Both the position numbers and the translations under genes were made by a program. 64,000 bases of DNA, taken from positions 51,555 to 115,554 of IMG/VR virus record IMGVR_UViG_3300001683_000016; one strand, written 5' to 3'. The stretch comes from a virus. Below the pieces are notes generated by a model. It was given only the letters and a program-made list of their open reading frames with translations. It had not been told where the DNA came from and searched no databases. Positions 30-26,979 of this stretch are shown here, piece by piece; the first letter of the stretch is position 1, and the number at the start of each line of letters is the position of its first letter.

Positions 30-257
30 ATGAGTGCTTTCACAAAATCTTGGCTATTTCTCAAAACCGAGCCAATTGATATGCAGCAAGGCTCAGATGG
101 AACTTGGCGTGCACCTCAGGAAGATATAACACCAGAAAAAAAATTGTGGCAACAAATCCAAGCAAGAAACGCACAGGCTAGGCAAAACTTGCAGAAACCT
201 GCACAAGTAGCACAACCTAAACCTACACCACAACCGGGGTATTCAGGATGGATGTAA
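30..257 (+). CDS. Small Q/P-rich protein with N-terminal AFxKSWxFLK tag (putative head-packaged cargo)
   Basis: 75-aa ORF; starts MSAFTKSWLFLK, like MVFNKSWNYLK at 259 and AFSLAWNLLK in 3138..3509. Confidence 0.6.
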   Translation: MSAFTKSWLFLKTEPIDMQQGSDGTWRAPQEDITPEKKLWQQIQARNAQARQNLQKPAQVAQPKPTPQPGYSGWM

Positions 258-258
258 A

Positions 259-3141
259 ATGGTATTCAATAAATCTTGGAACTATTTGAAATCAATAAGC
301 GATTGGTCGTCTACTGATAGTTTATATGGTAATGAGTATGAAGATGAACCTAGTATAGAAAGAAGAAATACTCCAACTATGGATAACTCGTATCAAAAAA
401 TCTTACCTCAAGATGACCCAAGATTAGATTATAGAACTGGTTGGAAAGGTGTAGAACCCGTTAGGGCTATTCGTGTACAATCAAATCATCGAAAGGCAGG
501 TCAACCCGTACCTCAAGACGGCTCTAATATAAATTATGAACAAGGTGACCCAAAGTTACCGCCAAAGATTCCTGAGATACCTGATGACGATGACCCTGTT
601 TGGGATGACCCCGACTCACGATGGAGTAAAGACCCCAAATCGGGTTCAAGATATTATATGTCGGGTAAATATGAAGATGGTAAGTATATTTCTCGTAAAA
701 ACAAGCATTTTGTTGATTTGAAAAATGCAAAGGCTGGAACTTGGGCTGCAAACAATACTGTTGGGGATATTAATAATTTATATACTCATAACCAACCTGA
801 TAAGTTGGTCTATATTCGTGGGAGTCCCGATAAATATGGTAAAGTACACAGAAGGGATAGTGACGAAGCGGATGAAGGTTTAGCAGAAATGTTTATCGAA
901 CATAAAAAAGATATTTCACCTGAAAACCTTGTTGAAGTACCGTTAAAGACTCATTATAGAAACCAAACAAAAGATATGGGTACTCCTGACCTTGGGCATA
1001 ATAGACGCTCAAAAAGTGATAAAAGCGGGCGAGTTAGTCGTTGGAGTGATAAACCTGTACCTTGGGGCTACAGCCACAAGAAAAAGGGCGAACCAATGGA
1101 CATAGCCTTCCAGTTGCTCAAGATGTCTGCTGATGAAGCAGATGAGTTGGAAGAGCAAATGCTTTCTGATATGGAAAGAGGGACCAGTAATCCACGCTCA
1201 CGAAGAAAACAGCGAAGTATGGGCGAAAGGGAATCAAAGGCATCTATCCATAATTTTCCCGGTTCATCATCTCGTAGAGAAATGTGGGATGAAAAGCAGA
1301 AAGAAAGAGACTGGGAACGATGGGGAAAGAGACATGCTGAAGATAAAGCAATTGCAGGAAAAGACCTACCCTCATATCATGGGTTTGGTAGCGATAGGCT
1401 AAGAGAAATCCATCCGGGTGATAGAGGGAACGATTTCTCATCTATGAAACCGGGAAAATATGAGTTTGACGGTGTAGGTAGGGAAGAAAGACCCATACCT
1501 TTTGAGCCGGGTGATAACCTTATGGAGTGGTTACAGCCCGGATACAACGAATCTAACAACCTAAGACTATTCAGGGATAAGGATGACTCTAAACATGAGT
1601 GGCAACCAAAACCGTGGACAACAAGTGGCCCTATCAATCATGTTCCCGAAACCCAAGAATGGGTAAACAACCCTTTTGATGAAGAACCAACTTTTCACGG
1701 GATACCATTCAATGAAGATACGGGTTTCACAACAGGTGAACCAATGGACATAGCCTTCCAGTTGCTCAAGGGAAAGACAAGGCAATCTACTCTTTGGGGT
1801 TACGACCCAAAAATGGTAGAGAACTTACTCGCAGAAGATAACAGTAATATTTTCATCGCCGCTAAACCCGGAAACGATGATATGCCCGATGATGAACAAA
1901 ATGAGCGTTCGGATAAAATGCTACAAGACCTCGCCGCACTCAAAGAGGAACATGGTCACTTCGATATAACCAGTGCCACAGGTAGAGCGCAGTGGGACGC
2001 AGAACCATCTTTCATGCTCACTAACGTGCCTGATAGTGCAAGGGATTCCATTAATGAGATAGCGGAAAGATACGGTCAGGAATCCATGGGAATCTCGGAA
2101 AAGGGGGAGAAAGGGGTGAACTACGTTACACCGGAGGGGGAGGTAAAGGACAAGTTCAGTAGTATGGAGATGCAGGAAAAACCGGAGTACTCTACAGATT
2201 TTCCGAGTAGTCAGAGGCTGGCTTTTACGGGTTGGCAGGAAGCAAATAAGGCTAATCCAATGCACATAGCCTTCCAGTTGCTCAAGGGTTGGGCAGGTGG
2301 TGTTAGAGGTATAGGTAATAATGCCACGGACAACATTTATCATTATCCACACGAATTAGATTACGGCGCGATAGACGAATATATGGGTGAGAATCCTGAT
2401 GCTACTCTCGGTAGTATGGTAACGCCGTATCTACAAGGACAGTTTACAAATAATCCTCCTCTCTTTCCAGAATTAAGCACAAATCCGCCAACCTATCAAA
2501 GTGAAAGACCTACTCAATTACAAAGCACAGTTCCGGCACCTTTTCCACAAACCCCCGAACAATCTAAAGGTGTTCAAAATCTCATTGATGATGGATTTGA
2601 AAACTATGAATCTAGAGATAGAACGAGAAAACCCCATTACGATAGCATGAATAATGCAGTCAGAGTATTATCTAGAAATTTAAGAAGAAACCCTGCATAC
2701 AATTTTACGCCGCCGGGACGATTACGAGGCACTAAGGGACAGGGCGGTAGAAGTAGGCAAATGCAGAACATGAAACTAAGAAGTTTGTTAGATACTCCTG
2801 TATCTCAAAGTATGGCAGAGATGAACATACCGAAACAAGGAATACCAATTGCGGCAGGCGAACCAATGAACATAGCCTTCCAATTGCTCAAAGAGCGCAA
2901 GTCACCAGCAGCATTTGCTCACAAGTTAGAGTATGACAAGCAATATCAAAAGACACCTAAGCGCGTAAAGTACCGTGAGCAATTAAACGCAGAGCGTAGG
3001 AAGCGTGGCATATACGGTAAGGGTGGTGCGGATGTTAGCCACACACAAGGTGGTAAACTCACTCTTGAAAGCGCACATGCTAATAGAGCAAGACATTTCA
3101 AAAACAAAGGCACTCTCCGCAGGGTCAAGGTGAAAAAATGA
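259..3141 (+). CDS. Modular putative polyprotein: five segments separated by GEPMDIAFQLLK tags; includes SAM-lyase-like and HNH-like modules
   Basis: 960-aa ORF; tag at 1087, 1735, 2251 and 2857; intervening segments show no mutual similarity. Confidence 0.75.
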   Translation: MVFNKSWNYLKSISDWSSTDSLYGNEYEDEPSIERRNTPTMDNSYQKILPQDDPRLDYRTGWKGVEPVRAIRVQSNHRKAGQPVPQDGSNINYEQGDPKLPPKIPEIPDDDDPVWDDPDSRWSKDPKSGSRYYMSGKYEDGKYISRKNKHFVDLKNAKAGTWAANNTVGDINNLYTHNQPDKLVYIRGSPDKYGKVHRRDSDEADEGLAEMFIEHKKDISPENLVEVPLKTHYRNQTKDMGTPDLGHNRRSKSDKSGRVSRWSDKPVPWGYSHKKKGEPMDIAFQLLKMSADEADELEEQMLSDMERGTSNPRSRRKQRSMGERESKASIHNFPGSSSRREMWDEKQKERDWERWGKRHAEDKAIAGKDLPSYHGFGSDRLREIHPGDRGNDFSSMKPGKYEFDGVGREERPIPFEPGDNLMEWLQPGYNESNNLRLFRDKDDSKHEWQPKPWTTSGPINHVPETQEWVNNPFDEEPTFHGIPFNEDTGFTTGEPMDIAFQLLKGKTRQSTLWGYDPKMVENLLAEDNSNIFIAAKPGNDDMPDDEQNERSDKMLQDLAALKEEHGHFDITSATGRAQWDAEPSFMLTNVPDSARDSINEIAERYGQESMGISEKGEKGVNYVTPEGEVKDKFSSMEMQEKPEYSTDFPSSQRLAFTGWQEANKANPMHIAFQLLKGWAGGVRGIGNNATDNIYHYPHELDYGAIDEYMGENPDATLGSMVTPYLQGQFTNNPPLFPELSTNPPTYQSERPTQLQSTVPAPFPQTPEQSKGVQNLIDDGFENYESRDRTRKPHYDSMNNAVRVLSRNLRRNPAYNFTPPGRLRGTKGQGGRSRQMQNMKLRSLLDTPVSQSMAEMNIPKQGIPIAAGEPMNIAFQLLKERKSPAAFAHKLEYDKQYQKTPKRVKYREQLNAERRKRGIYGKGGADVSHTQGGKLTLESAHANRARHFKNKGTLRRVKVKK
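1087..1122 (+). repeat. 36-nt in-frame tag repeat, copy 1 (GEPMDIAFQLLK)
   Basis: ggcgaaccaatggacatagccttccagttgctcaag. Confidence 0.95.
1735..1770 (+). repeat. 36-nt in-frame tag repeat, copy 2 (GEPMDIAFQLLK)
   Basis: ggtgaaccaatggacatagccttccagttgctcaag; 35/36 identical to copy 1. Confidence 0.95.
2251..2286 (+). repeat. 36-nt in-frame tag repeat, copy 3 (ANPMHIAFQLLK)
   Basis: gctaatccaatgcacatagccttccagttgctcaag. Confidence 0.95.
2857..2892 (+). repeat. 36-nt in-frame tag repeat, copy 4 (GEPMNIAFQLLK)
   Basis: ggcgaaccaatgaacatagccttccaattgctcaaa. Confidence 0.95.
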
Positions 3142-3509
3142 GTAATTATCCGTCATACCCAACGACACCTCCTAAAAAATGTGAATATTGTAATGGTGCT
3201 GGAATTATTGACCCTTATGGTGATGAAGAGGATGTGGCTCAGGCTGACCCAAGATATCCACATGAAACATGTTGGAAGTGCAAAGGAACAGGTATACAGA
3301 CAGAATGGTCATTTAACCCATATATGCCTTCTTTCCACCCCCCTTCTTTCCCCCCCCCTTCTTTCCACCCCCCTTCTTACCACGCCCCTCCCCCGTCCAA
3401 AATGGAATTAGGAGAGCCAACAATTAATTTTGACCCTGAATGGCAAGAAATGAATAAAAGTTCTAGTGTTGCATTTTCATTAGCGTGGAACTTACTTAAA
3501 TCAGAATAA
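3138..3509 (+). CDS. DnaJ-type zinc-finger protein with PPSFH repeats and C-terminal AFSLAWNLLK tag
   Basis: CEYCNGAG ... CWKCKGTG (two CxxCxGxG); ATG overlaps the previous stop (ATGA). Confidence 0.65.
   Translation: MSNYPSYPTTPPKKCEYCNGAGIIDPYGDEEDVAQADPRYPHETCWKCKGTGIQTEWSFNPYMPSFHPPSFPPPSFHPPSYHAPPPSKMELGEPTINFDPEWQEMNKSSSVAFSLAWNLLKSE
3327..3386 (+). repeat. 15-nt pyrimidine-rich tandem repeat x4 (ccttctttccacccc)
   Basis: Four adjacent near-identical units encoding PSFHP/PSFPP/PSFHP/PSYHA. Confidence 0.9.
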
Positions 3510-3641: not shown

Positions 3642-4298
3642 ATGAGCAGAGATGTAGGGGATACAAACGAAATGAAAATGACAGGGTTGATTTTATCTCA
3701 ATCGGCCTTAGTTGGATTAGCAATAGGAGTATATAGTTCGGGTTTATGGATGCCCGCAGGTTCAAGTGCAAGTTCAACAATAGATGGTATGACTTATGCG
3801 ATGGGTGCGCTTGCAGTTCAAACAATAGCATATTATTTGTTTAAGATGTTCTTTGAACAGTCTATGAAAGAGAAAGTGGAAGTTGCAGAATTACAAAGAA
3901 ACAGGCAGAATATGTATAGACAGCAGCAAATGGGCTTTGACCAACGTAGAGTAGATTTAGAATTGAGACAAATGGAACTGCAATTAGAAAACGAATTACG
4001 TATGATGCATGAAGACCCTAACAGAGTATTAGATAATAATTTTAATAGCGGTGCAGTTAGTGCTGGTGTTCAAGGTGACTATCATAATACCTTCAACCCC
4101 GGACTTGTACCTGTGCATGGTGCAAAAAATGAGGTACCAATGAATCTTGGACTTACTAGTACACAGGAAGCAGTTGACTCAATGGCTCACTCCAATTTAC
4201 CGCCACGCAGTTTACCTATACCGCCAAGAGACGGACAACCTACAACACAGCGTTTGAAGAAAGATGGTACGCCGGATTTAAGATATAGAGCATCGTGA
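3642..4298 (+). CDS. Membrane protein: two TM helices, coiled coil, disordered tail
   Basis: Hydrophobic LILSQSALVGLAIGVY and MTYAMGALAVQTIAYYLF; heptad-like ELRQMELQLENEL; ends KKDGTPDLRY; gaggt RBS. Confidence 0.7.
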   Translation: MSRDVGDTNEMKMTGLILSQSALVGLAIGVYSSGLWMPAGSSASSTIDGMTYAMGALAVQTIAYYLFKMFFEQSMKEKVEVAELQRNRQNMYRQQQMGFDQRRVDLELRQMELQLENELRMMHEDPNRVLDNNFNSGAVSAGVQGDYHNTFNPGLVPVHGAKNEVPMNLGLTSTQEAVDSMAHSNLPPRSLPIPPRDGQPTTQRLKKDGTPDLRYRAS

Positions 4299-4309
4299 GG
4301 TAGACCGAT

Positions 4310-4597
4310 ATGGTACTACCCGGACAACTAATTCCCTCTCCGTTGCGTATATTTCGTAATATTGGTGATGATTCGGTCGAAGAAACTCTTAGAGCAATGC
4401 ATTTAGCAAATACTGTAGATAATACTTATGAATGGGGACTTGGTTGGATTAGAACAATAGTCGTATCTATTGTTGCTGTTATGTCTGTGTCTGCTATGGA
4501 AGCGAACTCAGATTGGAATCTTTGGGAATTAACAGTAGAATGGTGGTATCAAAAAGTAGCAGATTTTGGTTCTTGGATTACTAATAAGTTTAGTTGA
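4310..4597 (+). CDS. Small membrane protein
   Basis: WGLGWIRTIVVSIVAVMSVSAM TM segment and Trp-rich amphipathic C-terminus; gaggt RBS. Confidence 0.65.
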   Translation: MVLPGQLIPSPLRIFRNIGDDSVEETLRAMHLANTVDNTYEWGLGWIRTIVVSIVAVMSVSAMEANSDWNLWELTVEWWYQKVADFGSWITNKFS

Positions 4598-8161: not shown

Positions 8162-8562
8162 TACCTGTATCGGATTTAATGCAAGTTCAACATCCGGGTT
8201 ATCGTACTTTTATACAATCTAATACTATGTCCGCTATGCATTATCCTTTATTTTTTGATTATTGTATATGTGTATCAGAAAGATTTAGACATTATGCATA
8301 TCAAGAGGCTAATGTACTAATTAATGAAAATAGTCTTATGCATATAATAGATTGCATAAAACAATTAGATGATACCGATGAGCCTGAAATAGTATTACCG
8401 TTGAGAGAACAGATAAGACATTCATGTTACGAGTTCTTAGAACATTGTAATGATATGTCTACTAAATTCAAAAGCCCAACCAGTATTTCTTTATTTTATA
8501 ATGAGTTAGGACAACTCGTGATGCAGACCGCTTTTGAGTTTGCGGGGGTACAACATGAGTAA
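8158..8562 (+). CDS. Hypothetical protein
   Basis: 134-aa ORF, ATGA-coupled, ggagg RBS. Confidence 0.55.
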   Translation: MIPVSDLMQVQHPGYRTFIQSNTMSAMHYPLFFDYCICVSERFRHYAYQEANVLINENSLMHIIDCIKQLDDTDEPEIVLPLREQIRHSCYEFLEHCNDMSTKFKSPTSISLFYNELGQLVMQTAFEFAGVQHE

Positions 8563-9955
8563 GCCAGTAAAGATTTTGAAGTCAGGTATGACTAGTACTG
8601 GTAGCGATACTCGTATGTATGGACCGAGAAGTGAATCCTCTCACATGTTCCATGGTAATCACGAAGATGAAGGGGATGTTTACGGTGGAGAAGGGGGTGA
8701 ATATCGTGATGCAAGAATTGACCGCAAAAAGAAAGAACGTAAAGAAAGAGAATCTGAAATGAAGAAGTTAAGACATATTTCAGTAACTACAGCAGATTTA
8801 CCTCCTGAAGATGAGGAAGAAAAAGATAAAGACTTAGAACCGACAAAATTCGATAATGAACTTGAGCCTTCTTTAATGACCGGTACTCCGGGTAATTTTG
8901 GTGCTATGACTAGTATGGCTAATCAAGCAAGGGGGCCGGGTTTTGCCGGTGGGCATAATTTTGCTATGGGAGAACCAATGAATATAGCGTTCCAGTTATT
9001 GAAAGGCGGGAGAGCCGGTTTTATAGGTAAAAAACCAAAGAGGGCGAAGGGTGCTAAAGCAGCAAGAGCGCATAAAGAAAGGCAGAAGAAATGGAGGCCA
9101 TCTACTGGTGAGTTCAAAAGGCCGCCGGGTGGTATGACACCGGCTAGTGCTACATCTAGAAGAGCAAAGGCAAGAATGCGAGGTATTGCCGGTAGCAAGA
9201 AAACAGGGTTAGGTAGAGCACATCTTGCTGTCGAAATGTCTCACAGAGGTGTAAAAACTAAACAGCCTATGTCGAAAGATGTAAAGAGATATAGACAATA
9301 CCTAGGACAGTCTGAAGCAAGAAAGCGTTTAGGTAACATACGAACTATTTCTTCTACACCTTCTAGATTTGGTGCACGTTCATACAAAGCGGGGTTAACT
9401 GGCGGTGGTACACTACAAAGTCTACTCCCCGGACAAGCCCAACAAATGAGAAGACCATCACTTAGGTCAATTAGACCTCCACCGTTAATGCCACCTTCTG
9501 CACCTAGTAGAGCCACTTTACCTTCACCTTCCATACCGAGTCCTCCTGTAATGTCCCAACCAAGAATGGGAGTTGGGGTGCAAAGCATGTCCAACCAAAG
9601 TCCAACTTATAGACCTAAGTTACCTAGTTCTTCAATACAAGGTGCACCTGTAATGACTGGTGAGATTGGAGAAGGTAGTGAACTACAAAAAAGGGGACTA
9701 TCATACTATGACACCACAGAATTAAGACAATTACTCCTTGATGCTAAAAGAGCCTTGAACCGTAAAGAGAATAAGAAAAAGGGTAAAGGAGAGAGAAGTA
9801 CAGATGCTGCTAGTCATTTACCCGCCCATACAGAAGCAGGCCCGAAACAGACCACAAGACCTGAAGGCGCTACAGAAGATGCAAATAATGAGCCTCGCAC
9901 ATTTGGTATTAATCCTCTAGACCATCTTACAAGTAGAGGCGGTAGAACACCTTGA
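8555..9955 (+). CDS. Low-complexity putative internal head protein: acidic segment, GEPMNIAFQLLK tag, very basic segment, Pro-rich segment
   Basis: ORF track 8534..9955; ATG 8555 gives MSKPVKILKSG; fifth tag copy at 8969. Confidence 0.65.
   Translation: MSKPVKILKSGMTSTGSDTRMYGPRSESSHMFHGNHEDEGDVYGGEGGEYRDARIDRKKKERKERESEMKKLRHISVTTADLPPEDEEEKDKDLEPTKFDNELEPSLMTGTPGNFGAMTSMANQARGPGFAGGHNFAMGEPMNIAFQLLKGGRAGFIGKKPKRAKGAKAARAHKERQKKWRPSTGEFKRPPGGMTPASATSRRAKARMRGIAGSKKTGLGRAHLAVEMSHRGVKTKQPMSKDVKRYRQYLGQSEARKRLGNIRTISSTPSRFGARSYKAGLTGGGTLQSLLPGQAQQMRRPSLRSIRPPPLMPPSAPSRATLPSPSIPSPPVMSQPRMGVGVQSMSNQSPTYRPKLPSSSIQGAPVMTGEIGEGSELQKRGLSYYDTTELRQLLLDAKRALNRKENKKKGKGERSTDAASHLPAHTEAGPKQTTRPEGATEDANNEPRTFGINPLDHLTSRGGRTP
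8969..9004 (+). repeat. Tag repeat, copy 5 (GEPMNIAFQLLK), synonymously diverged
   Basis: ggagaaccaatgaatatagcgttccagttattgaaa; same peptide as copy 4 with several synonymous changes. Confidence 0.9.
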
Positions 9956-12369
9956 TTGACTCATTCATCATAATGAAATCTCTTTTACTTAGAAAGGGAG
10001 ACGGTAATTACAACCTGTTTGCAGGCCAATTACAAGCCTTGAGATACCCTCCACCTGATTCTCATAATCCTGACCCTGACGGAATGGATATTCCAGCATT
10101 CGCACACACCGGAGCACATGGTGAAAAAGAATCAGGTATTCCCGGCGTAGGTCAGGTATATCCCGGTCAATGGAAAAAAGGAATGCATGGAGAAAATGTC
10201 TACGGTGATGAATCGGGCGGAGAACACATGCATGGTATTGACGGCATTATACGAGCAGTTGGTGATTCTCTTTTACAACACGGTATTAAAGTACCTGCTA
10301 AAGATGTAATACAAAAAGCCATAGACATGCATAATCAAGACCATAAAGAAAATAATCATTTACCAAATGTAGATGACGTTGCTTGGAGAAAAATATATTT
10401 ATCGCCATTAACAGAACAAGACCATAGAGTTAGAGGTAACTATGACCAAGATGGTAATTTAACAACAACATATACTAACAGGCATGGTGATGACCATAGA
10501 AATGGTACTTATTTAGAATCTTATGCAGTACCGTTCAATAATCAACTTGGTCAAGTTATGGGTGAGTTAGGTCATCCTACACCCCAACAACATAGTTGGA
10601 TAAAGAAACCTTACGTTAAACCACATAGATTACATTTAGTTCCTGATGGAGAGGGCGGAATGGAATTTGGCGCACAAGCGGTTGACACAGGTAAAGTAAC
10701 TGATGGGAGAATACAACCGAGTCAAGCAGCAAAATGGGGAGGTAGAATGCCTGATAGTAGAGCCTTTCAAAATATATCATCTTGGGGTATTGCACATCAT
10801 TACCCAAACACATATTACATTCCTCAAAGAGACGCAGCCCCCGGACAAAAAAGCCAACCAAGAACACAAACAATTAATAGTTTTCTTCATCATATGGCTT
10901 TAACGACTGGGAAAGACAGAGATGGTATTCTGAGTAATCTGATAGTTGATAGTTCAGGTGCTATGAAACATTTAGCAAACATACCGGGAGAAATAAACGG
11001 TAAACCGATAAAAGCGTTATTACAAACCCCTGAAGGACAATTAGAGGCAGCAAAATATTTCTCTCAGTTTCCAGCATTTCAAGCAGTTTATGGAGAAAAT
11101 AGAAATCCTAAATTTAATGAAGACGGTAGTGTGAAACAACCGGGTCAAACTGTTGGAAGAATGAATCATTTTTATGGTCAAAGATATGGTGATACAGCAG
11201 AAGAAGGAAAAGGATTCGACCACTTTATGAGCCATAGTAGTAAAATTGGTGTTGAACACCAATTAACTGGTAAAATAGGCCATCATAATAGAGCAAAAGA
11301 TGCTTGGAGTAATGTTGTGCTTGCAGCATCGCAAGGAATTAACCACATGGATGATGAAATATCTCCTGAGGATTTACAGGCCGCTAATATTAATTTGCAC
11401 GATACTCCTGAAACTAGGGCTAATGCTCCAAATATAAAAGCAATACTAGACCATTTGTTTCACACCCACACTATAGCAGGTGGACACGAAAGAAAAGAAA
11501 TACCTACACAAGAAGAATTACAACAACTACAACCTATTGTAGATAATATAATTCAAGGTGGAACACATGAAGATAGAACTCAACTTGGCGTACCTGACTA
11601 TATTAGATATTCAGAGATGCCTAATTCTATGACACCTGTGGGTGCATCTATGCAGCCTGAAGAAAGTTCGTTAAAACCTAGAGATGGAAACGCAAAGGGT
11701 CAAGGCGGTGCACCTCTTCCGATTACCGGCGGGGCGGCGACGGCTGCAACTAATGCCGCACCACCACCTCAAACTCCACCACCTCAAACTCCACCTCAAC
11801 AAATTGGTGTTATGCAAGGCCAACCTGCTAATGCTCCAAATTATCCTCCCCAAATGACATATGATAGAGGTCAAAGATTATCACAACCTGAATCTATGAA
11901 CTTAACGCCACAACAAAGACAAAGGTTACAATTTGCAAACGCTCCTCAAAATGAAGTAGCACAAACAATGAGACAATCGGGCGCTGCGCCACAGAGAGCA
12001 CCTTTAACTCCTGATAGAATGCAACAATTTCAACAAAATGTAGGAGACCCTTATCAGAGATTCATATCGCAATATGCTAAAAGTTCTGATAATCCTAATG
12101 CTGCTAAAGAAAGATTAATCAAAGCGGTTGAAATATTACAAATAGAAGATGCAAGAAATGATAATGAAATAATCAAACACATGCCTTCAACACAATTAAG
12201 TGTAAATTCAATTACAGATATTCTATATTTAGCGAAAATGTTAGAGATTACATCTATGGATGTTAGTACAATCTTAAACACTAAAGGCGATTGGCAAAGA
12301 ATATCCAAGACATACGGTTATTCAGATAGAGTAGTTAAAGTAGTCAAGGTTTCATTCGGAGGTATCTAA
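9952..12369 (+). CDS. Hypothetical His/Gln/Pro-rich protein, possibly head-associated
   Basis: 805-aa ORF; hydrophobic-x-K|[SGA] motifs at both ends (IIMKS, LLRKG, YAKS, LIKA). Confidence 0.6.
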   Translation: MIDSFIIMKSLLLRKGDGNYNLFAGQLQALRYPPPDSHNPDPDGMDIPAFAHTGAHGEKESGIPGVGQVYPGQWKKGMHGENVYGDESGGEHMHGIDGIIRAVGDSLLQHGIKVPAKDVIQKAIDMHNQDHKENNHLPNVDDVAWRKIYLSPLTEQDHRVRGNYDQDGNLTTTYTNRHGDDHRNGTYLESYAVPFNNQLGQVMGELGHPTPQQHSWIKKPYVKPHRLHLVPDGEGGMEFGAQAVDTGKVTDGRIQPSQAAKWGGRMPDSRAFQNISSWGIAHHYPNTYYIPQRDAAPGQKSQPRTQTINSFLHHMALTTGKDRDGILSNLIVDSSGAMKHLANIPGEINGKPIKALLQTPEGQLEAAKYFSQFPAFQAVYGENRNPKFNEDGSVKQPGQTVGRMNHFYGQRYGDTAEEGKGFDHFMSHSSKIGVEHQLTGKIGHHNRAKDAWSNVVLAASQGINHMDDEISPEDLQAANINLHDTPETRANAPNIKAILDHLFHTHTIAGGHERKEIPTQEELQQLQPIVDNIIQGGTHEDRTQLGVPDYIRYSEMPNSMTPVGASMQPEESSLKPRDGNAKGQGGAPLPITGGAATAATNAAPPPQTPPPQTPPQQIGVMQGQPANAPNYPPQMTYDRGQRLSQPESMNLTPQQRQRLQFANAPQNEVAQTMRQSGAAPQRAPLTPDRMQQFQQNVGDPYQRFISQYAKSSDNPNAAKERLIKAVEILQIEDARNDNEIIKHMPSTQLSVNSITDILYLAKMLEITSMDVSTILNTKGDWQRISKTYGYSDRVVKVVKVSFGGI

Positions 12370-18615: not shown

Positions 18616-18764
18616 GATTGAGTAAAGTGTACGTCAAAAAAGGCGTAGCACAAATGGAACCCTGCAAGATGTGTGGAGCAACTGCGTATGAAGGTTGTAA
18701 ACAAGCAAAAGGGCTTTCCTTAGGCGAATGTCCATATTACCAAAGGTACAATACCGGAGGTTGA
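18612..18764 (+). CDS. 50-aa four-Cys microprotein, absent from the ORF track
   Basis: Manual translation MRLSKVYVKKGVAQMEPCKMCGATAYEGCKQAKGLSLGECPYYQRYNTGG; ATGA-coupled; fills the gap between its neighbours. Confidence 0.6.
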   Translation: MRLSKVYVKKGVAQMEPCKMCGATAYEGCKQAKGLSLGECPYYQRYNTGG

Positions 18765-18775
18765 GAGGGGATGTT

Positions 18776-21700
18776 ATGGAAGAAGATGCCGCAGAAGTAT
18801 ACATCAGACACCGTACTGAATTGCTAAAAGCAATTTTTGATAATACTAATCCTGAACAAGAAGTCGGTGATTACTTACTTTCTAAAATAAATCTAGAAAA
18901 TCATGACATAACTTATGATAAGATAGGGTTAGATTTAGTCTGTGACTCTTATAGCAACTATGTCTTGACTAAAGCAAAGGAAAAGAAAGATGAGTTTGGT
19001 ACTTTACACGGTCATAGACCTGCTATGGAGAAAGTGTATGGTAGTAATCATGAATGGAAAAATAGAGTAAAGCGTGCATGGAACGAAAGCGATAATAAGA
19101 AATATAATTACAAACTACATTCTCCACAAAAAGATGGTGAAGATTATCTAAGTTACCACGAAAGAAATTTAATTCCTGACACAATGAAACATTCTTTATG
19201 GCCTGAAATGAACTCTCATACAATTGAGTTTGACCATAAGGATGAAACAAATGAGGCCATATTAAGGCCAGCAGAACATTATAAAGACGCTAATCCATTT
19301 AGTGAAAAGCACCACCCTATGCGTAGAAGAAAAGTAGATACCGGTATGCCTGAGTGGGAAAGCACATTACGAAATTATTATCTTTCTGATTTTGGATGGG
19401 CGAAGAAAGGTAAAGATATAGAAAATGCACACAAGTCTTTCCATACTAATAAAGATAAAACAGGCGTACAGGATATTCGAGAGTTAGTTAAAGTCGGAGA
19501 GGCTATTAAGGATAAAACTGGAATAGCAACTGGTAAGAAAGAAGATGAGTATAGAACTGTGAAAAACCTAAAACACGGTATATATCATGGTATAAATAAA
19601 GGTACTGAAAGTCACAAAATGTCTTTCTTAGGTGGTAACGATGGTCATGAAGGTAGTATGAATCATCAAGATGATATAAGAATTAGAGATTTTGAAAGAT
19701 GGAAAAAAGATTACCCCGAACGTGTAAAACAATTAGAAGAAGATGACAAGGATTTAGAAGAGGCTCATTTTAATGATAGAATGAGAAAGTTAGATAGTAA
19801 TGATATTTTTGAAGAGAAAATAAATCCTAAGACTAGTACTAACGTTTATGAAAATATAGACAGACGTGGTAAATCTACGTTAGATGATGTAAAAACTGTA
19901 CCTCATGGACACGGAATGGGTTGGGATACATGGAATCATGGTTTAGAGTTCTTGAATCCAAAAGAAAGAAGTTTAGTCATGGGGCATATAAACGAACACG
20001 GTACCGATGACCCAGCACATCAATCAGTTACTTTACCTGATGGTCAAAGAATACACATGCATCGAATAAAAGCAAATCTGCAAATGAGGAATAATGCAGA
20101 AGTAGACCATTGGACTAGAAGTCAAATGCACGCTGGCCCAAATAAGGCTAAACACATAGAAGCAAATACTGACAATCTAAAAACAGGAACTGAAGGAGTG
20201 GTATCTAAGGCATTAAAAGACACATTAATAAAAGATAATTTTCCATATCATGGTGAGCCATACGCAGATATAGAAAGAATGGTAAAAGATAAAAAAACTG
20301 GTGAATATAAACCGAAACTTGTAAAGACTAAATTGTTTGATGAAACTGCCCATGAAGCGTTAATTAGAAATTTAGAAGAGCATCACGAAGGGGATAAATT
20401 ACTAGAATACGAAAAAGAGAAATTAACGACTGATGAAGAAAGTGGTGAGACAACAATAGCGCCCGGAAAAAGTAATTTACCACCATTTGATGCAAGAGAT
20501 ATAGAAGAATATCAAAAAAGCCTTAGTCAAGGTAAAACTATGAAAGAAGCATTTGGTAAAAAAATACATGCGGGTAGTGATGTAGTTTTAAGTCCTGAAG
20601 GATTACACACTTTAGTAGGATATAATAAAAATGATTTAACTATCTCACCACATCCAATGTTTAAAGGACAACAAGAACCTTTCTTAGAAAAAAATATAAT
20701 GAAAGAAGTTCTGAAAAATATAGATAGAAGTACAGGTATTGCTAATAAATCTAAAGATATAAGGAATGGAATGGGAACGTTTAGAGCACCGAACGGCCCT
20801 AGAAAAGATAATCCTCTTTTAGAAGAAGGAGAAGAAAAAAACTACTATGACCATGAAGGTAAACTCAGAACTCTAGCATATCCGTTTTCTCGTCCATTTA
20901 CTAATCGAGGTGGTGCTGGTAGACCTATTACTACGCTTATGGAAATTTTACATGATTTCAAATCAAAAGGTTATGATTTAAATCATAATATGGAGAAAGG
21001 AATAAGTACCTTGAAAGCAGGTTCTACATCACCTTTTGGTGTTAAAGACGCAGACAATGTGATAGATGCAAACCTTTCCACTGTGGGGGCTTACGGTCAC
21101 CTTCATTCTGATTACTTACCCACAGAACAACAAAATCATTACTCCGCTTTAGGTATTTTATCAAAAACAGATGCAACTTCACACTCTCAATATTTAACTG
21201 GAAGTAAAAAGGGTAAGGGTAGAAACACCAAAACAAACAGTAGTGACCATGATTCTACTCGTTCTCCCGGTTTAGCACCTTTGTTAGAATATGGTGTGGA
21301 TAAAAAATATAATACTTCACTTACTAAATATTTGACCGGCAATCTTACATCTAACGCTTATACTTCTACAAGTGTTAGAAAACCACCGTCTAAAAAGAGA
21401 ATTAAATCAATGACTGAAAAGCAAAAAAAACAAATCAACATTCAAGGTGAATCATCTGTTAGAAATTTAGCAGGTGAAACACATCATCGTGCAACAGTAA
21501 ATGGTAGCACTAGCCCGCCTAATAACCCAGCGCAGAGATTCTTAAACTTCAAAGATATAGAAAATAATCCTAATTATTTGAGTACAGGTGATAATATAGA
21601 TGACGTTATGACTGCATTACCTAGTAGTCGTGTTAAAAATCCTAAAGACAGTTTACCTGAGGGCTTCTTTGATGAGTTACTATCTATACAAGAAGAAATT

Positions 21701-24367
21701 GAAAATGCAAAAGACCCTGAGAAAATACAATTTCTAAGAAGTATGCTTCGGCCATTACAAGAACAATACGAAACTGCAACAAAGAAACAAAGAGATTATG
21801 GTTCACGACAAAGACCTCATAGAGACTTTGGTAATGTGCGAAGAAACATGGAACAGGCTCACGGAAGCGATAGAGGCGGGATTGCAGAGATATTTAGAAC
21901 AGTAATTGCACCTGCAATTCTAAAAAAGAAACCCGACGCATTCCATGAAGATAATCCTAAGGCTTTACTAAATATTTTGAGAGGTGTAAAAGATGCGCAA
22001 AGACATCTTTATGTTAATGGAGACCACAATGTAAAGATTAGTGCACACACCCACTCATCCGAAGAAGAAGATATGACATCTGATATACATTATAATTTAG
22101 CCAAAGGGATGAAACGGAGTGGTAAAGTAACAGATAATGTAATTGACCCTAGTAAACATAATGTTAATGATGTCTTAGAAATGTTAGATTTACCAAATGA
22201 TGATGCACATAAAAAGCACGCACAGAGATACTTAGATACTTTATCCGGTCCAGTACATGGGTATAGTTTAGGACAACTTGCTACAATGGGATTACAATGG
22301 AATCCTAAAAATAAAGAAATGTTCGGAGTAGACGGAAAAGGAGATGTACACACTCATCTAGATAATACATTAAGAGAGGCTCGTGGAAAATTTCCACCTG
22401 CAAGAAAAGATACTGGTAACGTATATCCCGAAGAACATGAGAAAGCAGGGAAGATTTCTACAACTAAAAACAATGATTACGATAGAGCAGTTACTGAGTT
22501 CATAAGTAATAATCCTATATATCAAGGTTTGAACTTTTTACATCAAAATGCTAGACAAGAACAAAAATTAGATGGTTATGGTTTACAATATCACCAAGCA
22601 CCTGCTCCTTTAGGTGTAAAAAGTAAACAAACTAACGCTCATAATAAAAGCAATGAAGGCACTTTACTACACGAAAGTAGACAAGGGCATCGTTCATTAG
22701 AGTATCACCATGCTAGAAGAAAAGATATTGCAAGTAATATACTGTCATTTGATACTAGTCCCGATATTGATTTGAAATCTAAAGTTGAACCTAAAACAAT
22801 TCACAGCATTGGTTGGGGTAATGAGCAAGTAAAACCACTTAGAAGTCATGAGGGTGCAACTCCAACCGACCAGTTCACCAGCGGTCTAATGGATTGGGGT
22901 TGGGGCGGAAAAGCAGAAATTGGTACAGAACACGATTTTGACGGTAACTCTGTTGTAGGCACTAATATGGGTGAAGAGAACTTCCCTTCTGTGCCTTTTA
23001 GTTATCTAGAGTTTTTACTTCGAGATTCACATTCGCCTGAAAATATACAATCTATGTTAACTAATGCAGAACCCTTTACTCAATATCCCGCACAAATGCA
23101 GCAAAACGCCTATGGTGAAACACCAAGTGATGATTATCAAAGGGTAGCCACTAGTTTCGATAAGATACCTTATAGTAATTTATTGAAGAATCTTCCAAAA
23201 GAAATACCACTAATAGAGCCACTACATAGAATCTTTGAACTTAAAGACATGTCTGAATTAAGAGGCTTTACTGGTGAATGGGTTGTGTCTATTCACAAAG
23301 ATGGTACAAGATGTAAAGTTAGTAAAAAGAACGGTAGAATAGCAATAGAAGACGAAAATGGCGTGGAGCAATCTTGTAGTGATGAATTAAGAGATTCATT
23401 CAAAGCGGCGTGTAAGAAAAATTATGTTGTTGACGGAATAATGGATGATGGTGATTTCTATATTAATGATATTTTGTCATATGATAAGGATGAAGTTACT
23501 GAACTAACTACAAGAGAGCGTATTAAAATCTTAAGAGGGCAGTTTGAGAGTTACCACCCTGTATTCATACCTAGCCCATCCGATATTAGAATCACAGATG
23601 AGGTTGGATTAGAAGGTGCGGTAAAAGAATTAGGCAAAGATTCTGATAAGTTATTACTCCGTGATGCAAAGTCTACTTACATGAAAGGAGAAGAAAAGCA
23701 TCCAAAGTGGGTATTACTTGCTAAATCTGATATTTTATACCATGTACCTTTTACTATGGAAATTGATGATAGTCACTTTATCATCAGATTACCCGAAGAT
23801 GTTGTGAAATACGATATTGTAGATGAGAAGGCCGTGAACCCTGTAGCCGCTATCGGTGAAATAACCAATTCGGATTACTCTATACGGTTAGCAAAAAGCC
23901 TTGAGTCTTATTGGCAAGACGGTTTAATTGAATTGTTAAAAGAAGAAACGCAAATTGAAATACAAGAGAAGGTAGGGGAAGAGACACAGATTGAACCTGA
24001 GTTAAACGAAGAAGAGATAGAAGAAGAAAGTGCTGGAATCTTAAAGCCTAAGAAAGATAGAAACTTGATTATGAAGCCAAATGATATGGCGAAGGCCCTA
24101 TTACTGATTGAAAGAGCCTTAGATAAAATGCAAAAAGGCCATAGTAATATGGCTGGAAGAGGATTAGGAATAGACGTTGGGGGTGGTGTTGAAAGTCCTC
24201 GTGGACCTACATCTCTTACAGCAGAACAGTCTTTACCTGATTGGGATATGAAGAAGCGCCCTACTGAGGACTTGGAGAAACCTGAAGATTATCCGGGTAG
24301 AAAACAGAAAAAGAAGCAAAATGCTATGCAGTCTAGCGTTTTTAATGAAAGAAGCCTTGATGAGTAG
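18776..24367 (+). CDS. Giant head-module protein with C-terminal degenerate ATP-dependent ligase-like domain
   Basis: ORF track 18728..24367; ATG 18776 follows gagagggg; motifs HKDGTR, VVDGI, FYINDIL, LLLRD, KHPKW near 23280-23720. Confidence 0.7.
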   Translation: MEEDAAEVYIRHRTELLKAIFDNTNPEQEVGDYLLSKINLENHDITYDKIGLDLVCDSYSNYVLTKAKEKKDEFGTLHGHRPAMEKVYGSNHEWKNRVKRAWNESDNKKYNYKLHSPQKDGEDYLSYHERNLIPDTMKHSLWPEMNSHTIEFDHKDETNEAILRPAEHYKDANPFSEKHHPMRRRKVDTGMPEWESTLRNYYLSDFGWAKKGKDIENAHKSFHTNKDKTGVQDIRELVKVGEAIKDKTGIATGKKEDEYRTVKNLKHGIYHGINKGTESHKMSFLGGNDGHEGSMNHQDDIRIRDFERWKKDYPERVKQLEEDDKDLEEAHFNDRMRKLDSNDIFEEKINPKTSTNVYENIDRRGKSTLDDVKTVPHGHGMGWDTWNHGLEFLNPKERSLVMGHINEHGTDDPAHQSVTLPDGQRIHMHRIKANLQMRNNAEVDHWTRSQMHAGPNKAKHIEANTDNLKTGTEGVVSKALKDTLIKDNFPYHGEPYADIERMVKDKKTGEYKPKLVKTKLFDETAHEALIRNLEEHHEGDKLLEYEKEKLTTDEESGETTIAPGKSNLPPFDARDIEEYQKSLSQGKTMKEAFGKKIHAGSDVVLSPEGLHTLVGYNKNDLTISPHPMFKGQQEPFLEKNIMKEVLKNIDRSTGIANKSKDIRNGMGTFRAPNGPRKDNPLLEEGEEKNYYDHEGKLRTLAYPFSRPFTNRGGAGRPITTLMEILHDFKSKGYDLNHNMEKGISTLKAGSTSPFGVKDADNVIDANLSTVGAYGHLHSDYLPTEQQNHYSALGILSKTDATSHSQYLTGSKKGKGRNTKTNSSDHDSTRSPGLAPLLEYGVDKKYNTSLTKYLTGNLTSNAYTSTSVRKPPSKKRIKSMTEKQKKQINIQGESSVRNLAGETHHRATVNGSTSPPNNPAQRFLNFKDIENNPNYLSTGDNIDDVMTALPSSRVKNPKDSLPEGFFDELLSIQEEIENAKDPEKIQFLRSMLRPLQEQYETATKKQRDYGSRQRPHRDFGNVRRNMEQAHGSDRGGIAEIFRTVIAPAILKKKPDAFHEDNPKALLNILRGVKDAQRHLYVNGDHNVKISAHTHSSEEEDMTSDIHYNLAKGMKRSGKVTDNVIDPSKHNVNDVLEMLDLPNDDAHKKHAQRYLDTLSGPVHGYSLGQLATMGLQWNPKNKEMFGVDGKGDVHTHLDNTLREARGKFPPARKDTGNVYPEEHEKAGKISTTKNNDYDRAVTEFISNNPIYQGLNFLHQNARQEQKLDGYGLQYHQAPAPLGVKSKQTNAHNKSNEGTLLHESRQGHRSLEYHHARRKDIASNILSFDTSPDIDLKSKVEPKTIHSIGWGNEQVKPLRSHEGATPTDQFTSGLMDWGWGGKAEIGTEHDFDGNSVVGTNMGEENFPSVPFSYLEFLLRDSHSPENIQSMLTNAEPFTQYPAQMQQNAYGETPSDDYQRVATSFDKIPYSNLLKNLPKEIPLIEPLHRIFELKDMSELRGFTGEWVVSIHKDGTRCKVSKKNGRIAIEDENGVEQSCSDELRDSFKAACKKNYVVDGIMDDGDFYINDILSYDKDEVTELTTRERIKILRGQFESYHPVFIPSPSDIRITDEVGLEGAVKELGKDSDKLLLRDAKSTYMKGEEKHPKWVLLAKSDILYHVPFTMEIDDSHFIIRLPEDVVKYDIVDEKAVNPVAAIGEITNSDYSIRLAKSLESYWQDGLIELLKEETQIEIQEKVGEETQIEPELNEEEIEEESAGILKPKKDRNLIMKPNDMAKALLLIERALDKMQKGHSNMAGRGLGIDVGGGVESPRGPTSLTAEQSLPDWDMKKRPTEDLEKPEDYPGRKQKKKQNAMQSSVFNERSLDE

Positions 24368-24412: not shown

Positions 24413-25780
24413 GTGCTCGGTAGTCAACAACTATTCAGAAACGGCGATAGTCCAATCAGTATCCTCAAGGGTGCTAATGACCTCATCGTTGCTGGTTATG
24501 CCAGTGTGGAAGTTGTAGACAAGCAAGGCGACGTAATAACAAAGGAGGCATTGAAACAAGCATTTCGGAAATTCATGGAAAATCCGTCATACAGAAACGT
24601 TCAATTGGCTCACAGTAATATACAAATTGGAGACGTTGTACCGAATTATACAGATAATGAAGGGAGGTTGTGGAAAAGCGAAGTCGATGATGTCGGAATG
24701 TTTGTAGTTGTAAAATTACGAGACGACATCGAGAAAGCAAAAGAGGTTTCAGCAGAAATCAGAAAAGGCGTTCTCAGAGGATTCAGTATCGGTGGTCAAG
24801 CGTTTAAGAGAGTCAGAAAATCAGACCCAAAACGAGGAGATTACCAAGAAATAAGTAAACTGGAACTACACGAAATAACGATTTGTGAAAAAGGCATCAA
24901 TCCCGAAGCAACATTTAGCATATTAAAAGAAGATAATAACACGGAAGTGAATAAAATGACAGAAACAGAAAATGATAATGAAATGATGAAACAACTTGGT
25001 AGCGTACTTTCACGTTTAGAAGGTCGGCTTGATGACATGGAGAAGGGCGAAAAACCTGCTTTCCTTGAAGAGAAGAAAGACGATAAGAAAGATGACAAGA
25101 AGAAAGAAGAAGTAGCGGCAGTAGAGGAAGTAGAGGAAGTAGAAAAGTCAGAATACTCTGACGTAATTTCATCCGATTACCTAAACTGGATGGAAGATAC
25201 TCTAAAGAGTGGCGGTGTTGATACTGTCAGCGCACGTACACACTTCGACGACTTAGAGAAAGCCAACCTAGGCTCTACACCTGAAGAAATTCAGGCTAAC
25301 CATAAAGGTTTAACTGGTCAAGCACCGGGTAGAACGCAAGAAGGTGGAAACCCATCAACCGGTGCTATTGCAGCAACCACAGGTGGAGGAGTGAAGAAAT
25401 CAGATTTCATTAACCCAGCATCACTTACAGACTCAGATATTGAGTCTGCATATGAAGTATACAAAGCGGCGGCTCTTGAAGAAGAGTTCCGTGGCTCTCT
25501 AGAAAATAATTTCGCATCTCGATACGCTTCAGAGCGTACAACAGAAGTTGCAAAGGCAGAAGCAGCAGCATATGATGCACGCGGACCTCTAGATGAGATA
25601 AACAAGGCAATCAGTGCACTTTCAGAGCGCATTGAAACAATCACTACTCCAGCAGAAACTGGAGAAGAAATCGCAAAATCAGATGCTGATGCACCAACAC
25701 TAACAGTTCCTTCAACAGAAGATTTAGCAAAAATGTCATGGGATGAAGTTCATAACTTGGCATCTAAGGCTTTTGAGTGA
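24413..25780 (+). CDS. Prohead protease (HK97-type) fused to C-terminal scaffold
   Basis: IVAGYASVEVVDKQGD, QLAH, GFSIGG, LHEITICEKGINPEA; acidic coiled-coil tail; directly upstream of the capsid gene. Confidence 0.88.
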   Translation: MLGSQQLFRNGDSPISILKGANDLIVAGYASVEVVDKQGDVITKEALKQAFRKFMENPSYRNVQLAHSNIQIGDVVPNYTDNEGRLWKSEVDDVGMFVVVKLRDDIEKAKEVSAEIRKGVLRGFSIGGQAFKRVRKSDPKRGDYQEISKLELHEITICEKGINPEATFSILKEDNNTEVNKMTETENDNEMMKQLGSVLSRLEGRLDDMEKGEKPAFLEEKKDDKKDDKKKEEVAAVEEVEEVEKSEYSDVISSDYLNWMEDTLKSGGVDTVSARTHFDDLEKANLGSTPEEIQANHKGLTGQAPGRTQEGGNPSTGAIAATTGGGVKKSDFINPASLTDSDIESAYEVYKAAALEEEFRGSLENNFASRYASERTTEVAKAEAAAYDARGPLDEINKAISALSERIETITTPAETGEEIAKSDADAPTLTVPSTEDLAKMSWDEVHNLASKAFE

Positions 25781-25809: not shown

Positions 25810-26979
25810 ATGGCACGAAATTACGTACGAACAATAACAGACATGGAAAGATACTACTATGGAGCAGGTAACGCAATGGGTTACTCATACTCAGGTAGTG
25901 AATTACTCAAGGCCGACAGCCCTATGCTGTCAACAACAGGTGGTACATACCAAGCAATCTACGGTCGCAAAGTATGGTCACAATTAAATCAAGAGTTTAA
26001 CGCATTCTCTATCCTACCAAAGAAACCATGGGACCGAAGTGGATGGCGAGTTATCACCGATAGACCGAACAGCGGAGCAATTGCTGGTAGCGGTATTGCT
26101 GAGAACGGCACACTACCTGAAACTATTAAACCAGCGTTCCAACATGTGGCAGCAAAACCTAAGACTATCGCTCACACATTCGATATGTCTGAAACTGCTA
26201 TCTTCCTTGCTGACAAGGATGACGGAATGGGCGACATACGCTCAGTCATGAAAGAGGAAATGGGTAAACATCACGCAGAAGTCATCAATAAGATGATGTG
26301 TGGTGACGTTGACACAGTAGCAGGCAACAACTTCGAGTCTCTTGACCGAGTTACTGCTGGATATGCTGCTGGTGCTGCATCTAAGACTGGACTAAGTACA
26401 GACGGTGATGCAATAAACGCAAACGGTGACCTAGACATATACAGTATTAGCAGAAGTGCAAACACATGGTCTAACGCTGAAATGAGTGTAAACGCAGTAG
26501 GTGGGACGCAAACCGATAGAACACTTTCTCTAGACTTATTAGATGAGATGTTCCAAAAGATGTGGATTCGTGGTGGAAACCCGAAAGTTATGTTAACTGG
26601 ATATGATACTCTAATGAGAATCCAGCAACTTCTACAATCACAACAGAGGTTCATGGAAGAGAAGAGAGTCACCCCTACCTATAACGGTGTAAAGGGTGTA
26701 CCCGGAATCGAGGCTGGTTTCATCGTAGCAACATACAACGGTGTACCAATCATTCCTACAAAGAACATGGCAACAGACACATTATCAAGAGTTTACTATC
26801 TAGATACAGATTACCTACACTTTAGCACAGCAATTCCAACACAATACTTTGAGAGTGGAATCGAAACTGGTGACCCATTTGCAATCAACAGATTAGGCCA
26901 AGAAGGACTATACCGTACCATGGGAGAACTATGGACAACTTTCTTCGGAGCACAAGGGAGCGTAAGAGACCTCAAATGA
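25810..26979 (+). CDS. Major capsid protein (HK97 fold)
   Basis: 389 aa after the protease; strong ggag RBS and biased codons; YNGVPII motif; candidate maturation site ELLK|ADSP. Confidence 0.88.
   Translation: MARNYVRTITDMERYYYGAGNAMGYSYSGSELLKADSPMLSTTGGTYQAIYGRKVWSQLNQEFNAFSILPKKPWDRSGWRVITDRPNSGAIAGSGIAENGTLPETIKPAFQHVAAKPKTIAHTFDMSETAIFLADKDDGMGDIRSVMKEEMGKHHAEVINKMMCGDVDTVAGNNFESLDRVTAGYAAGAASKTGLSTDGDAINANGDLDIYSISRSANTWSNAEMSVNAVGGTQTDRTLSLDLLDEMFQKMWIRGGNPKVMLTGYDTLMRIQQLLQSQQRFMEEKRVTPTYNGVKGVPGIEAGFIVATYNGVPIIPTKNMATDTLSRVYYLDTDYLHFSTAIPTQYFESGIETGDPFAINRLGQEGLYRTMGELWTTFFGAQGSVRDLK

Follow-up and report, generated by a model that had tools for sequence, protein, structure and literature searches.

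A twelve-residue tag before, between and behind the modules of magrovirus polyproteins: a candidate address-and-cut system for head cargo

We analyzed a window of 64,000 nucleotides (nt), which covers bases 51,555-115,554 of a 115,554-bp IMG/VR record (IMGVR_UViG_3300001683_000016) rated complete by CheckV and originating from a magrovirus of marine archaea. In this window, the open reading frame (ORF) 259..3141 encodes a 960-amino-acid (aa) polyprotein whose five modules are joined by a 12-residue peptide tag, and the same tag was found at the N-terminus, in the interior or close to the C-terminus of other proteins of this virus and of its relatives. The tag is under selection as a peptide, modules are shuffled between its copies among related viruses, and the residues around its last position have a signature like that of a scissile bond. 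We put at about one in two the probability of the full address-and-cut reading, in which the tag would mark head cargo in the manner of the capsid targeting sequence (CTS) of phage T4 and would be cut by the HK97-type (S78) head protease of the virus.

The polyprotein ORF 259..3141 and its tag

An earlier note on this DNA had described four in-frame tags in ORF 259..3141, separated by segments with no resemblance to one another, and this was confirmed as written: the coordinates, the segment lengths between tags (276, 204, 160, 190 and 82 aa) and the identity of copies 1 and 2 at 35/36 nt were all reproduced. The four tags are of the GEPM[DN]IAFQLLK type, and a degenerate back-translated tag, expected 0.00 times in shuffled sequence, was found 4 times. 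No similarity was detected among the segments of the ORF beyond the tags. A fifth copy, which the earlier note had overlooked, stands at the N-terminus; this diverged tag, MVFNKSWNYLK (259..291, plus strand), scored 5.1 bits with a tag hidden Markov model (HMM) built from 212 tags from other genomes only, and relatives keep M[VA]FNKSW[NA][YF]LK at this position.

Behind the N-terminal tag, modules and tags alternate on the plus strand. Module A (292..1086, aa 12-276), a member of family f3 and the customary first module of this polyprotein family, is followed by tag 1 (GEPMDIAFQLLK, 1087..1122), which was recovered by the in-frame tag search and by the tag HMM. Next come the acidic module B (1123..1734, aa 289-492), tag 2 (GEPMDIAFQLLK again, 1735..1770), module C (1771..2250, aa 505-664) and tag 3, a more diverged copy (ANPMHIAFQLLK, 2251..2286). 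Module D (2287..2856, aa 677-866) is rich in Pro, Gly, Ser, Asn, Gln and Thr and probably disordered. Tag 4 (GEPMNIAFQLLK, 2857..2892), found by the in-frame search, leads into the basic module E (2893..3141, aa 879-960), with an isoelectric point (pI) of 10.8.

The N-terminal and internal forms of the tag aligned residue by residue (Met or Gly/Ser, then N/E, P, F/M, D, Q/I, A, W/F, x, L, L, K), with the consensus M-N-P-F-D-Q-A-W-x-L-L-K at protein starts and [GS]-E-P-M-D-I-A-F-Q-L-L-K in the interior. Among 80 internal tags, all synonymous codons were in use, and residue 1 was either Gly, written with all four codons, or Ser, mostly AGC. Since all synonymous codons are in use across genomes, the codon record indicates that the tag is conserved as a peptide and not as DNA or as a ribosome-binding site. 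It was modelled as a short amphipathic helix comprising residues 3-14. When counted from an anchor that excluded both final tag positions, the last two residues were Leu in 147/154 and Lys in 149/154 cases, and the final position was never Arg. Conservation ended sharply after this Lys, with no conserved residue beyond it. Pro was absent from position +1 in 227 tags from the loci and in 236 tags of an independent set of cluster representatives (0/463 in total); it accounts for 8.6% of the ten residues after the tag and is among the commonest at +2, +3 and +5. Small or acidic residues are favored at +1. Taken together, the Lys, the exclusion of Pro and the preference for small or acidic residues at +1 look like a scissile K↓x bond. 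In five cases, 2-7 residues follow the tag before the protein ends, and these copies make sense only if the tag also addresses the protein, so that it appears to have a role other than that of a cut site.

Two degenerate DNA patterns of the tag were compared with 185,579 prokaryote species genomes. The N-terminal pattern gave no match in them, and the internal pattern matched exactly in two contigs of metagenome-assembled genomes (MAGs), L164 (NZMJ01000140.1, 'Maricaulis sp.' MAG) and L163 (JAUXED010000011.1, Bacteroidota MAG). Because L164 also bears a magrovirus-type gene, it is probably a mis-binned viral contig.

The comparison with relatives drew on about 50 loci in addition to the near-complete records of three other magroviruses. 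All the records carry the tag, with 6-10 copies in each of the three near-complete genomes, and their modules differ. Moreover, when 1.84 billion cluster representatives were scanned in full with HMMER, 467 clusters matched the polyprotein family, and modules and tags were counted in the best 150 of these 467. The number of tags per protein in the best 150 ranged from 0 to 7, with seven in one protein of 1,040 aa. Module E was the last module in 110/150 representatives, after 65 different module families, and in 23/23 proteins from the loci, after at least 10 different families; module C was seen in 6 different contexts. The earlier note had proposed that module number and identity should vary between conserved tags, and this is what was observed, with no fixed order and content among the relatives or the best 150 clusters. 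Families f12, f14, f17, f21 and f47 occur both as stand-alone proteins with an N-terminal tag and as internal modules of polyproteins; for this reason, the polyprotein is, as read from these arrangements, a run of tag-plus-module units without stops.

The borders of the exchanged segments fall in the tags. The closest relative (L110, capsid protein 100% identical) lacks module B, and its DNA identity to the window steps from 84% to 95.8% within tag 2. In two other pairs of viruses, flanks that are 90-96% identical enclose one or more unrelated middle modules, and both breakpoints lie within tags. The earlier proposal that the tags act as recombination joints at the DNA level is thus partly supported by the sequences compared. 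The position of the swap breakpoints and the near-identity of the tags that flank module B speak for it; it is only half right, because across genomes the tag uses all synonymous codons and is not conserved as DNA. Selection for functional in-frame junctions would yield an identical breakpoint pattern. Conservation or concerted evolution of the tags as DNA was considered and set aside as weak: all synonymous codons occur, and tag pairs with identical peptides differed by a mean of 3.2 nt within a source and 4.6 nt between sources, with 9 within-source pairs only.

The modules and the other tagged genes

The last module of the polyprotein belongs to a family that is also found in cyanophages. 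Module E matched phrog_6437, to which cyanophage Syn5 gp50 belongs (E 9.1e-19, profile positions 11-82 of 86), and showed 42-58% identity to cyanophage proteins in 21 records; in cyanophages, the phrog_6437 proteins are stand-alone and untagged. Apart from this match, module C is the only one of the five modules with a family call, a weak one to S-adenosylmethionine (SAM) lyase (DUF3293/S-AdoMet_lyase). It matched Pfam DUF3293 with E 0.008 (17.2 bits against a cut-off of 25) and PF23780 with E 2.2e-4 for the genome (17.7 bits against a curated cut-off of 28, which is not reached), and Atlas returned a feature score of 0.89 with a template modelling (TM) score of 0.79. These matches suggest that module C is probably SAM-lyase-related, short of proof. 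Modules A, B and D gave no match in Pfam or PHROGs and look largely disordered. The Atlas model of the whole polyprotein had a predicted local distance difference test (pLDDT) of 0.42 and a predicted TM (pTM) of 0.25.

Two stand-alone tagged sister genes upstream of the window gave further indications. The protein of L009:8473-8946 was modelled with an ADP-ribosyltransferase (ART)-like fold (pLDDT 71), its top Foldseek matches all belonged to the ART superfamily (KptA/Tpt1, Arr, PARP and pertussis S1; E about 2e-3, TM 0.40-0.45), and its YHGTT and G-x-Y motifs are invariant. Pfam PARP was matched with E 0.013 (15.5 bits against 26.7) and the ART-PolyVal model with E 0.093 only. Judged from the model, this protein looks like an ADP-ribosyltransferase. 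The second gene, L009:6283-6927 (G000 46283-46927), encodes a zincin-like protein with invariant H114, E115, H118, E126 and E135 (HExxH+E), and its family is an internal module in the polyproteins of some relatives; no HExxH was found in ORF 259..3141. Its zincin fold was unconfirmed, the model being too poor for a fold search (pLDDT 49). Collectively, the modules look like anti-host effectors, with SAM lyase, ADP-ribosyltransferase, zincin and basic DNA-binding proteins among the resemblances.

The tag HMM found 19 tags in 13 reading frames of the whole 115.5-kb genome, with scores of 5-19 bits; the next match scored 4.7 bits and the noise was at most 2.4 bits. Besides the diverged start of ORF 259..3141, the earlier note had overlooked the tags in ORFs 30..257, 3138..3509 and 8534/8555..9955, as well as those upstream of the window. 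ORF 30..257 (plus strand, 75 aa) begins with the tag MSAFTKSWLFLK at nt 30-65 (11.7 bits), and its homologues (f11) retain it. ORF 3138..3509 (plus strand), a CxxCxGxG zinc-finger protein of 123 aa, ends with one of the five C-terminal tags, VAFSLAWNLLK followed by SE and the stop codon (approximately nt 3465-3500). In ORF 8534..9955 (plus strand), a conserved protein whose true start is probably the ATG at 8555, about 150 weakly acidic N-terminal residues (pI 5.6) are followed by the tag GEPMNIAFQLLK at nt 8969-9004 and then by a 316-aa part with a pI of 11.5; in relatives, this tag is the insertion point of additional module-plus-tag units. ORF 9952..12369 (plus strand), of 805 aa and no known family, shows weak tag-like phi-phi-L-K repeats at its N-terminus, ahead of a conserved GDGNY. 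Pfam and PHROGs returned nothing for the 805-aa protein, the basic protein or a 1879-aa protein of the head module, described below.

About 10 more genes that start with M-N-P-F-[DN]-Q-A-W-x-L-L-K lie just upstream of the window; this genome has about 10 N-terminal tags, and the sample contains 95. In the same region, a second polyprotein of 352 aa (L009:6924-7982, G000 46924-47982) carries an N-terminal tag and two internal TGEPM[ED][VI]AMRLLK tags, and closes with a paralogue of module E (phrog_6437, E 2.3e-16). An untagged HMG-CoA-lyase-like gene (L009:8947-9795, G000 48947-49795; Pfam HMGL-like, E 1.5e-25) stands amid the array of tagged genes and may be an auxiliary metabolic gene. Within the window, positions 5533-6522 encode a conserved 329-aa family in which relatives show a tag-like ...KQAYKLLK followed by Pro (PTKRS); here, Ala replaces the Lys (AYKLLAPTK). 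This KQAYKLLK-Pro sequence resembles the tag and is probably not cleaved, in line with a block of the site by Pro.

The head protease and the possible roles of the tag

The earlier note correctly assigned ORF 24413..25780 (plus strand) to an HK97-type prohead protease. It matches Pfam Peptidase_S78 (PF04586; 38 bits against a cut-off of 21, E 2.4e-9, aa 22-173) and the PHROG annotation of head maturation protease, continues into a scaffold-like C-terminal half, and is the candidate enzyme for the tags. In HK97, the capsid protein is cleaved at K103/S104 (PMC10275583). A phi-L-K sequence, expected in 7% of ORFs, occurs within the first 45 aa in five consecutive head-module genes, and for three of the five it is kept in relatives. 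These are the 1879-aa protein encoded between portal and protease (18728..24367, plus strand), which has a conserved N-terminal ...RHRxELLK↓AI, no family match and no similarity to HVTV-1 gene 115; the protease itself (xISILK↓GANDL); and the major capsid protein (25810..26979, plus strand), of HK97 fold and 33% identical to those of HVTV-1/HCTV-5, with SGSELLK↓ADSP at aa 28-34. In the protease, phi-K sites are conserved at aa 19, 172 and 265; one that marks where the protease domain ends and one within the scaffold half are invariant. The phi-L-K sites of the head proteins are supportive of the address-and-cut reading, not decisive.

A separate observation concerns the C-terminus of the same ORF. 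The last 25 or so residues of the protease-scaffold protein (window 25690-25780), (V/I)PSTEDLAxMSWDEVHxLAxKxF, are strongly conserved and the preceding scaffold varies; judged by this conservation, they are probably a capsid-binding end. The sequence PSTEDLAxMSWDEVHxLA was also considered as a sequence that the tag might mimic, since it was a unique post hoc match to a regular expression, and was rejected, as the unbiased tag HMM does not detect it.

In the reading that we favor, the 12-residue amphipathic helix would mark proteins as head cargo and would bear a cut site after Leu-Leu-Lys. Stand-alone genes carry it at the N-terminus, and in polyproteins the same kind of tag-plus-module unit is repeated in frame. 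The S78 prohead protease would cut the tags, so that polyproteins such as that of ORF 259..3141 would be split into modules inside the prohead, and the released modules would enter the archaeal host with the DNA as ready-made anti-host tools, namely the SAM-lyase-like module, the ADP-ribosyltransferase-like and zincin-like relatives and the basic DNA-binding proteins. Since every unit begins with the same peptide, units could be inserted, lost or exchanged at the tags with the frame intact, which would generate the large combinatorial variety observed in natural sequences. We hold more tentatively the wider proposition that, in a globally abundant archaeal virus, a single position-independent peptide code loads cargo into an HK97-fold capsid and, through the head protease, frees it, with in-frame, integron-like cassette arrays serving to exchange anti-host effectors.

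Several observations weigh against this reading. Magroviruses are uncultured, and the related halovirus HVTV-1 shares the head module, yet no tags were found in its real frames and no cargo array upstream of its terminase. The phi-L-K sites of the head proteins comprise few residues and were noticed post hoc; the capsid N-terminus is too conserved overall to be informative, and the N-terminal ILK of the protease has PVFK as its aligned counterpart in HVTV-1, immediately ahead of the S78 core. From this alignment the ILK may be a strand of the fold, and it is weak as support for a cut site. The strict use of Lys, never Arg, exceeds the needs of a simple trypsin-like pocket. Many modules look disordered, at the Atlas pLDDT of 0.42 given above, and the zincin-like HExxH modules of the cargo are another candidate protease. 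Finally, one tagged gene (G000 19748-20416, L167:149-817:-), the only one on the opposite strand, lies in a minus-strand gene block upstream of the window; its product begins MTIHDAWAFLK..., shows kinase-like G-rich and D-x-G motifs by eye, and gave no match in Pfam and PHROGs.

The last two of these points bear on a rival explanation, in which the tags would be cleavable leaders and linkers processed in the cytoplasm, by the tagged zincin-like HExxH module or by a host protease, and the products would work in the infected cell instead of entering capsids. Many proteins would in this way be obtained from a single transcript and ORF, or toxic modules would be kept inactive until cut. The scissile-bond signature also fits such processing, the HExxH+E family recurs among tagged modules with the invariant residues of L009:6283-6927, polyvalent proteins are predicted to be processed by zincins embedded in them (PMC5512222), and the opposite-strand tagged gene lies in the minus-strand block. 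However, G002 and G003, two genomes that both have tags, yielded no tagged HExxH modules, and the zincin fold is the unconfirmed one mentioned above. C-terminal tags with 2-7 residues behind them would be pointless as mere cut sites, and the array heads the strand that leads into the terminase, portal, protease and capsid genes. We regard cytoplasmic processing as unlikely.

If the tag were instead an uncleaved docking peptide, comparable with those of encapsulin cargo, its binding partner would be the scaffold or the inside of the HK97-fold shell, and polyproteins would be multivalent cargo. Its occurrence at N-terminal, internal and C-terminal positions, its predicted helix and the HK97 fold of the shell are in agreement with this. 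In contrast, a pure docking helix would not be expected to exclude Pro completely from +1 or to lose its conservation abruptly after the invariant Lys, and the interchange of the same modules between fused and unfused forms suggests an equivalent, that is, separated, end state. We consider docking alone quite improbable. It also seems to us very improbable that the tag serves folding, localization or regulation unrelated to the capsid, by attaching to the chaperonin of the virus, to a host factor, to a membrane or export machine or to another hub of this kind. The genome does encode a Cpn60/TCP1 chaperonin, and the tie between tag and capsid is an inferred one; against this, the tag is short and charged, with no signal-peptide character, its two degenerate DNA patterns were confined, among the 185,579 prokaryote species genomes, to the two MAG contigs, one of them with the magrovirus-type gene, and the internal and C-terminal copies and the cleavage-like signature would be left unexplained. 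The idea that internal tags are mere relics of gene starts in fused genes, with GEPM representing a ribosome-binding site and an ATG (GGnGAACCAATG resembles a Shine-Dalgarno sequence plus start codon, and the same modules exist as separate genes) and with no role for the peptide, is largely refuted by codon use and by the alignment with N-terminal tags, as 24/80 internal tags begin with Ser (AGC, AGT or TCT), which abolishes GGnGA, the Met of internal tags has the Phe, not the start Met, of the N-terminal form as its counterpart, copy 3 has ANP, which matches MNP of the N-terminal tags, and the frames are open across 1-7 junctions in hundreds of independent assemblies; it can hardly be correct.

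The source virus and comparison with known systems

Magroviruses are uncultured tailed viruses of marine group II (Poseidoniales) archaea (PMC5434244). The window encodes a terminase, a portal, the HK97-type (Pfam S78) prohead protease with its scaffold-like half and an HK97-fold capsid protein. The latter is 31-34% identical to its counterparts in the haloarchaeal siphoviruses HVTV-1 and HCTV-5, and a close homologue of it is encoded by more than 600 IMG/VR stretches. The chaperonin gene lies at G000 999-2426 on the minus strand (E 2.2e-121). A capsid protein about 33% identical to those of haloarchaeal siphoviruses, a genome of about 100 kb, a halovirus-like head module and a chaperonin are the features by which magroviruses are recognized, and all were found here; because the capsid identity, the head module and the chaperonin fit the published description (PMC5434244), the source virus is, by its gene content, a magrovirus of marine Poseidoniales archaea. 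Elsewhere in the window, a homing-endonuclease-like ORF (14560-15702; PHROG HNH endonuclease, E 3.8e-7, with a weak LAGLIDADG_3 match) lies between terminase and portal, a small GTPase-like ORF with a weak Pfam Roc match (E 0.002) comes after two other ORFs (4609-5325 and 3642-4597), and there is a single ORF of 5,516 aa at 36971-53521, downstream of the head and tail genes.

In the surface ocean, magroviruses rank with the most abundant viruses, and most of their genes have no assigned function. Given the 19 tags that this genome contains and the 467 clusters of one polyprotein family, the tag would label much of this dark matter as probable head cargo or processed effector. If our reading is true, cargo loading in the style of T4 extends to archaeal viruses and to HK97-type proteases, and a polyprotein strategy, unusual among tailed double-stranded DNA viruses, is added to it. 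Archaeal viruses would thereby have their first known capsid-cargo system, with a cargo tag that is both natural and programmable, and the tagged modules would indicate which proteins are injected (SAM-lyase-like, ADP-ribosyltransferase-like, zincin-like and DNA-coating) and hence which defences Poseidoniales have. For loading proteins into HK97-fold shells, such a tag, 12 residues long and able to work at the N- or the C-terminus, could also be a useful tool.

The closest analogue in function is the CTS of T4, an N-terminal peptide of 10-19 aa that is present on IPI-III and Alt and is removed by the prohead protease gp21; the cargo includes the basic proteins IPI-III, with the anti-restriction protein IPI, and the ADP-ribosyltransferase Alt, and the recruitment of varied cargo by T4-like phages is attributed, as a probable role, to the CTS (PMC9026906). 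As in T4, a short peptide is common to the N-termini of otherwise unrelated proteins of one virus, and basic proteins and an ADP-ribosyltransferase (here, ADP-ribosyltransferase-like) are among the cargo, which here is a putative one. The CTS ends in the cut site of the head protease, and the magrovirus tag may do so too. The enzymes differ, since gp21 cuts after Glu, whereas the protease found here is of the S78 type, probably with Lys at P1. Moreover, the magrovirus tag also stands between polyprotein modules, up to 7 per protein, and at C-termini, and the host is an archaeon. No homology to the CTS or to gp21 was found, the protease matching Peptidase_S78 and the tag being unrelated in sequence, and the system is therefore an analogue of the T4 CTS, not a member.

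Polyvalent proteins, described for bacteria by Iyer, Burroughs, Anand, de Souza and Aravind in 2017, unite two to fifteen unrelated conflict-type domains (ART, zincin and others) in one polypeptide encoded near virion genes, and the prediction for them is entry together with the DNA and cleavage into separate parts (PMC5512222). The polyprotein described here may be a chain of this kind: it strings together five dissimilar modules, among which module C has the weak SAM-lyase call. Moreover, the same tag at every junction and on stand-alone paralogues is not reported for polyvalent proteins, and ORF 259..3141 has no embedded zincin, the HExxH motif being in the sister gene L009:6283-6927 and in some polyproteins of relatives. 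The giant phages phiKZ, 201phi2-1 and SPN3US have several head-internal proteins with a repeated protease motif, which are cut at several sites (PMC10052503). Their motif is a three-residue rule (A/S/G-X-E), whereas here it is a 12-residue helix, and the concatenation of unrelated modules with one constant terminal module is seen here and not there.

Two further systems bear comparison. The cargo-loading peptides of encapsulins are short terminal peptides that direct unrelated cargo into an HK97-fold shell; they are uncleaved and join no modules. Both these peptides and, on our reading, the tag would address unrelated cargo to the interior of an HK97-fold shell. In polymorphic toxins, a short conserved pre-toxin motif (VENN in CdiA, PxxxxDPxGL in Rhs) marks the border at which variable modules are exchanged. 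Unlike the serial modules of this viral polyprotein, those toxins have one variable tip per protein and belong to bacterial secretion systems. Two magrovirus papers that were searched mention neither polyproteins nor N-terminal features nor cleavage, and among the papers searched the tag strings occurred in no relevant one. Collectively, the system would act in the manner of both the T4 CTS and polyvalent proteins and is a member of neither, because it has no homology to the T4 parts, ORF 259..3141 has no embedded zincin, and its defining tag is in neither description. That defining feature is one 12-residue tag that stands before, between and behind the modules.

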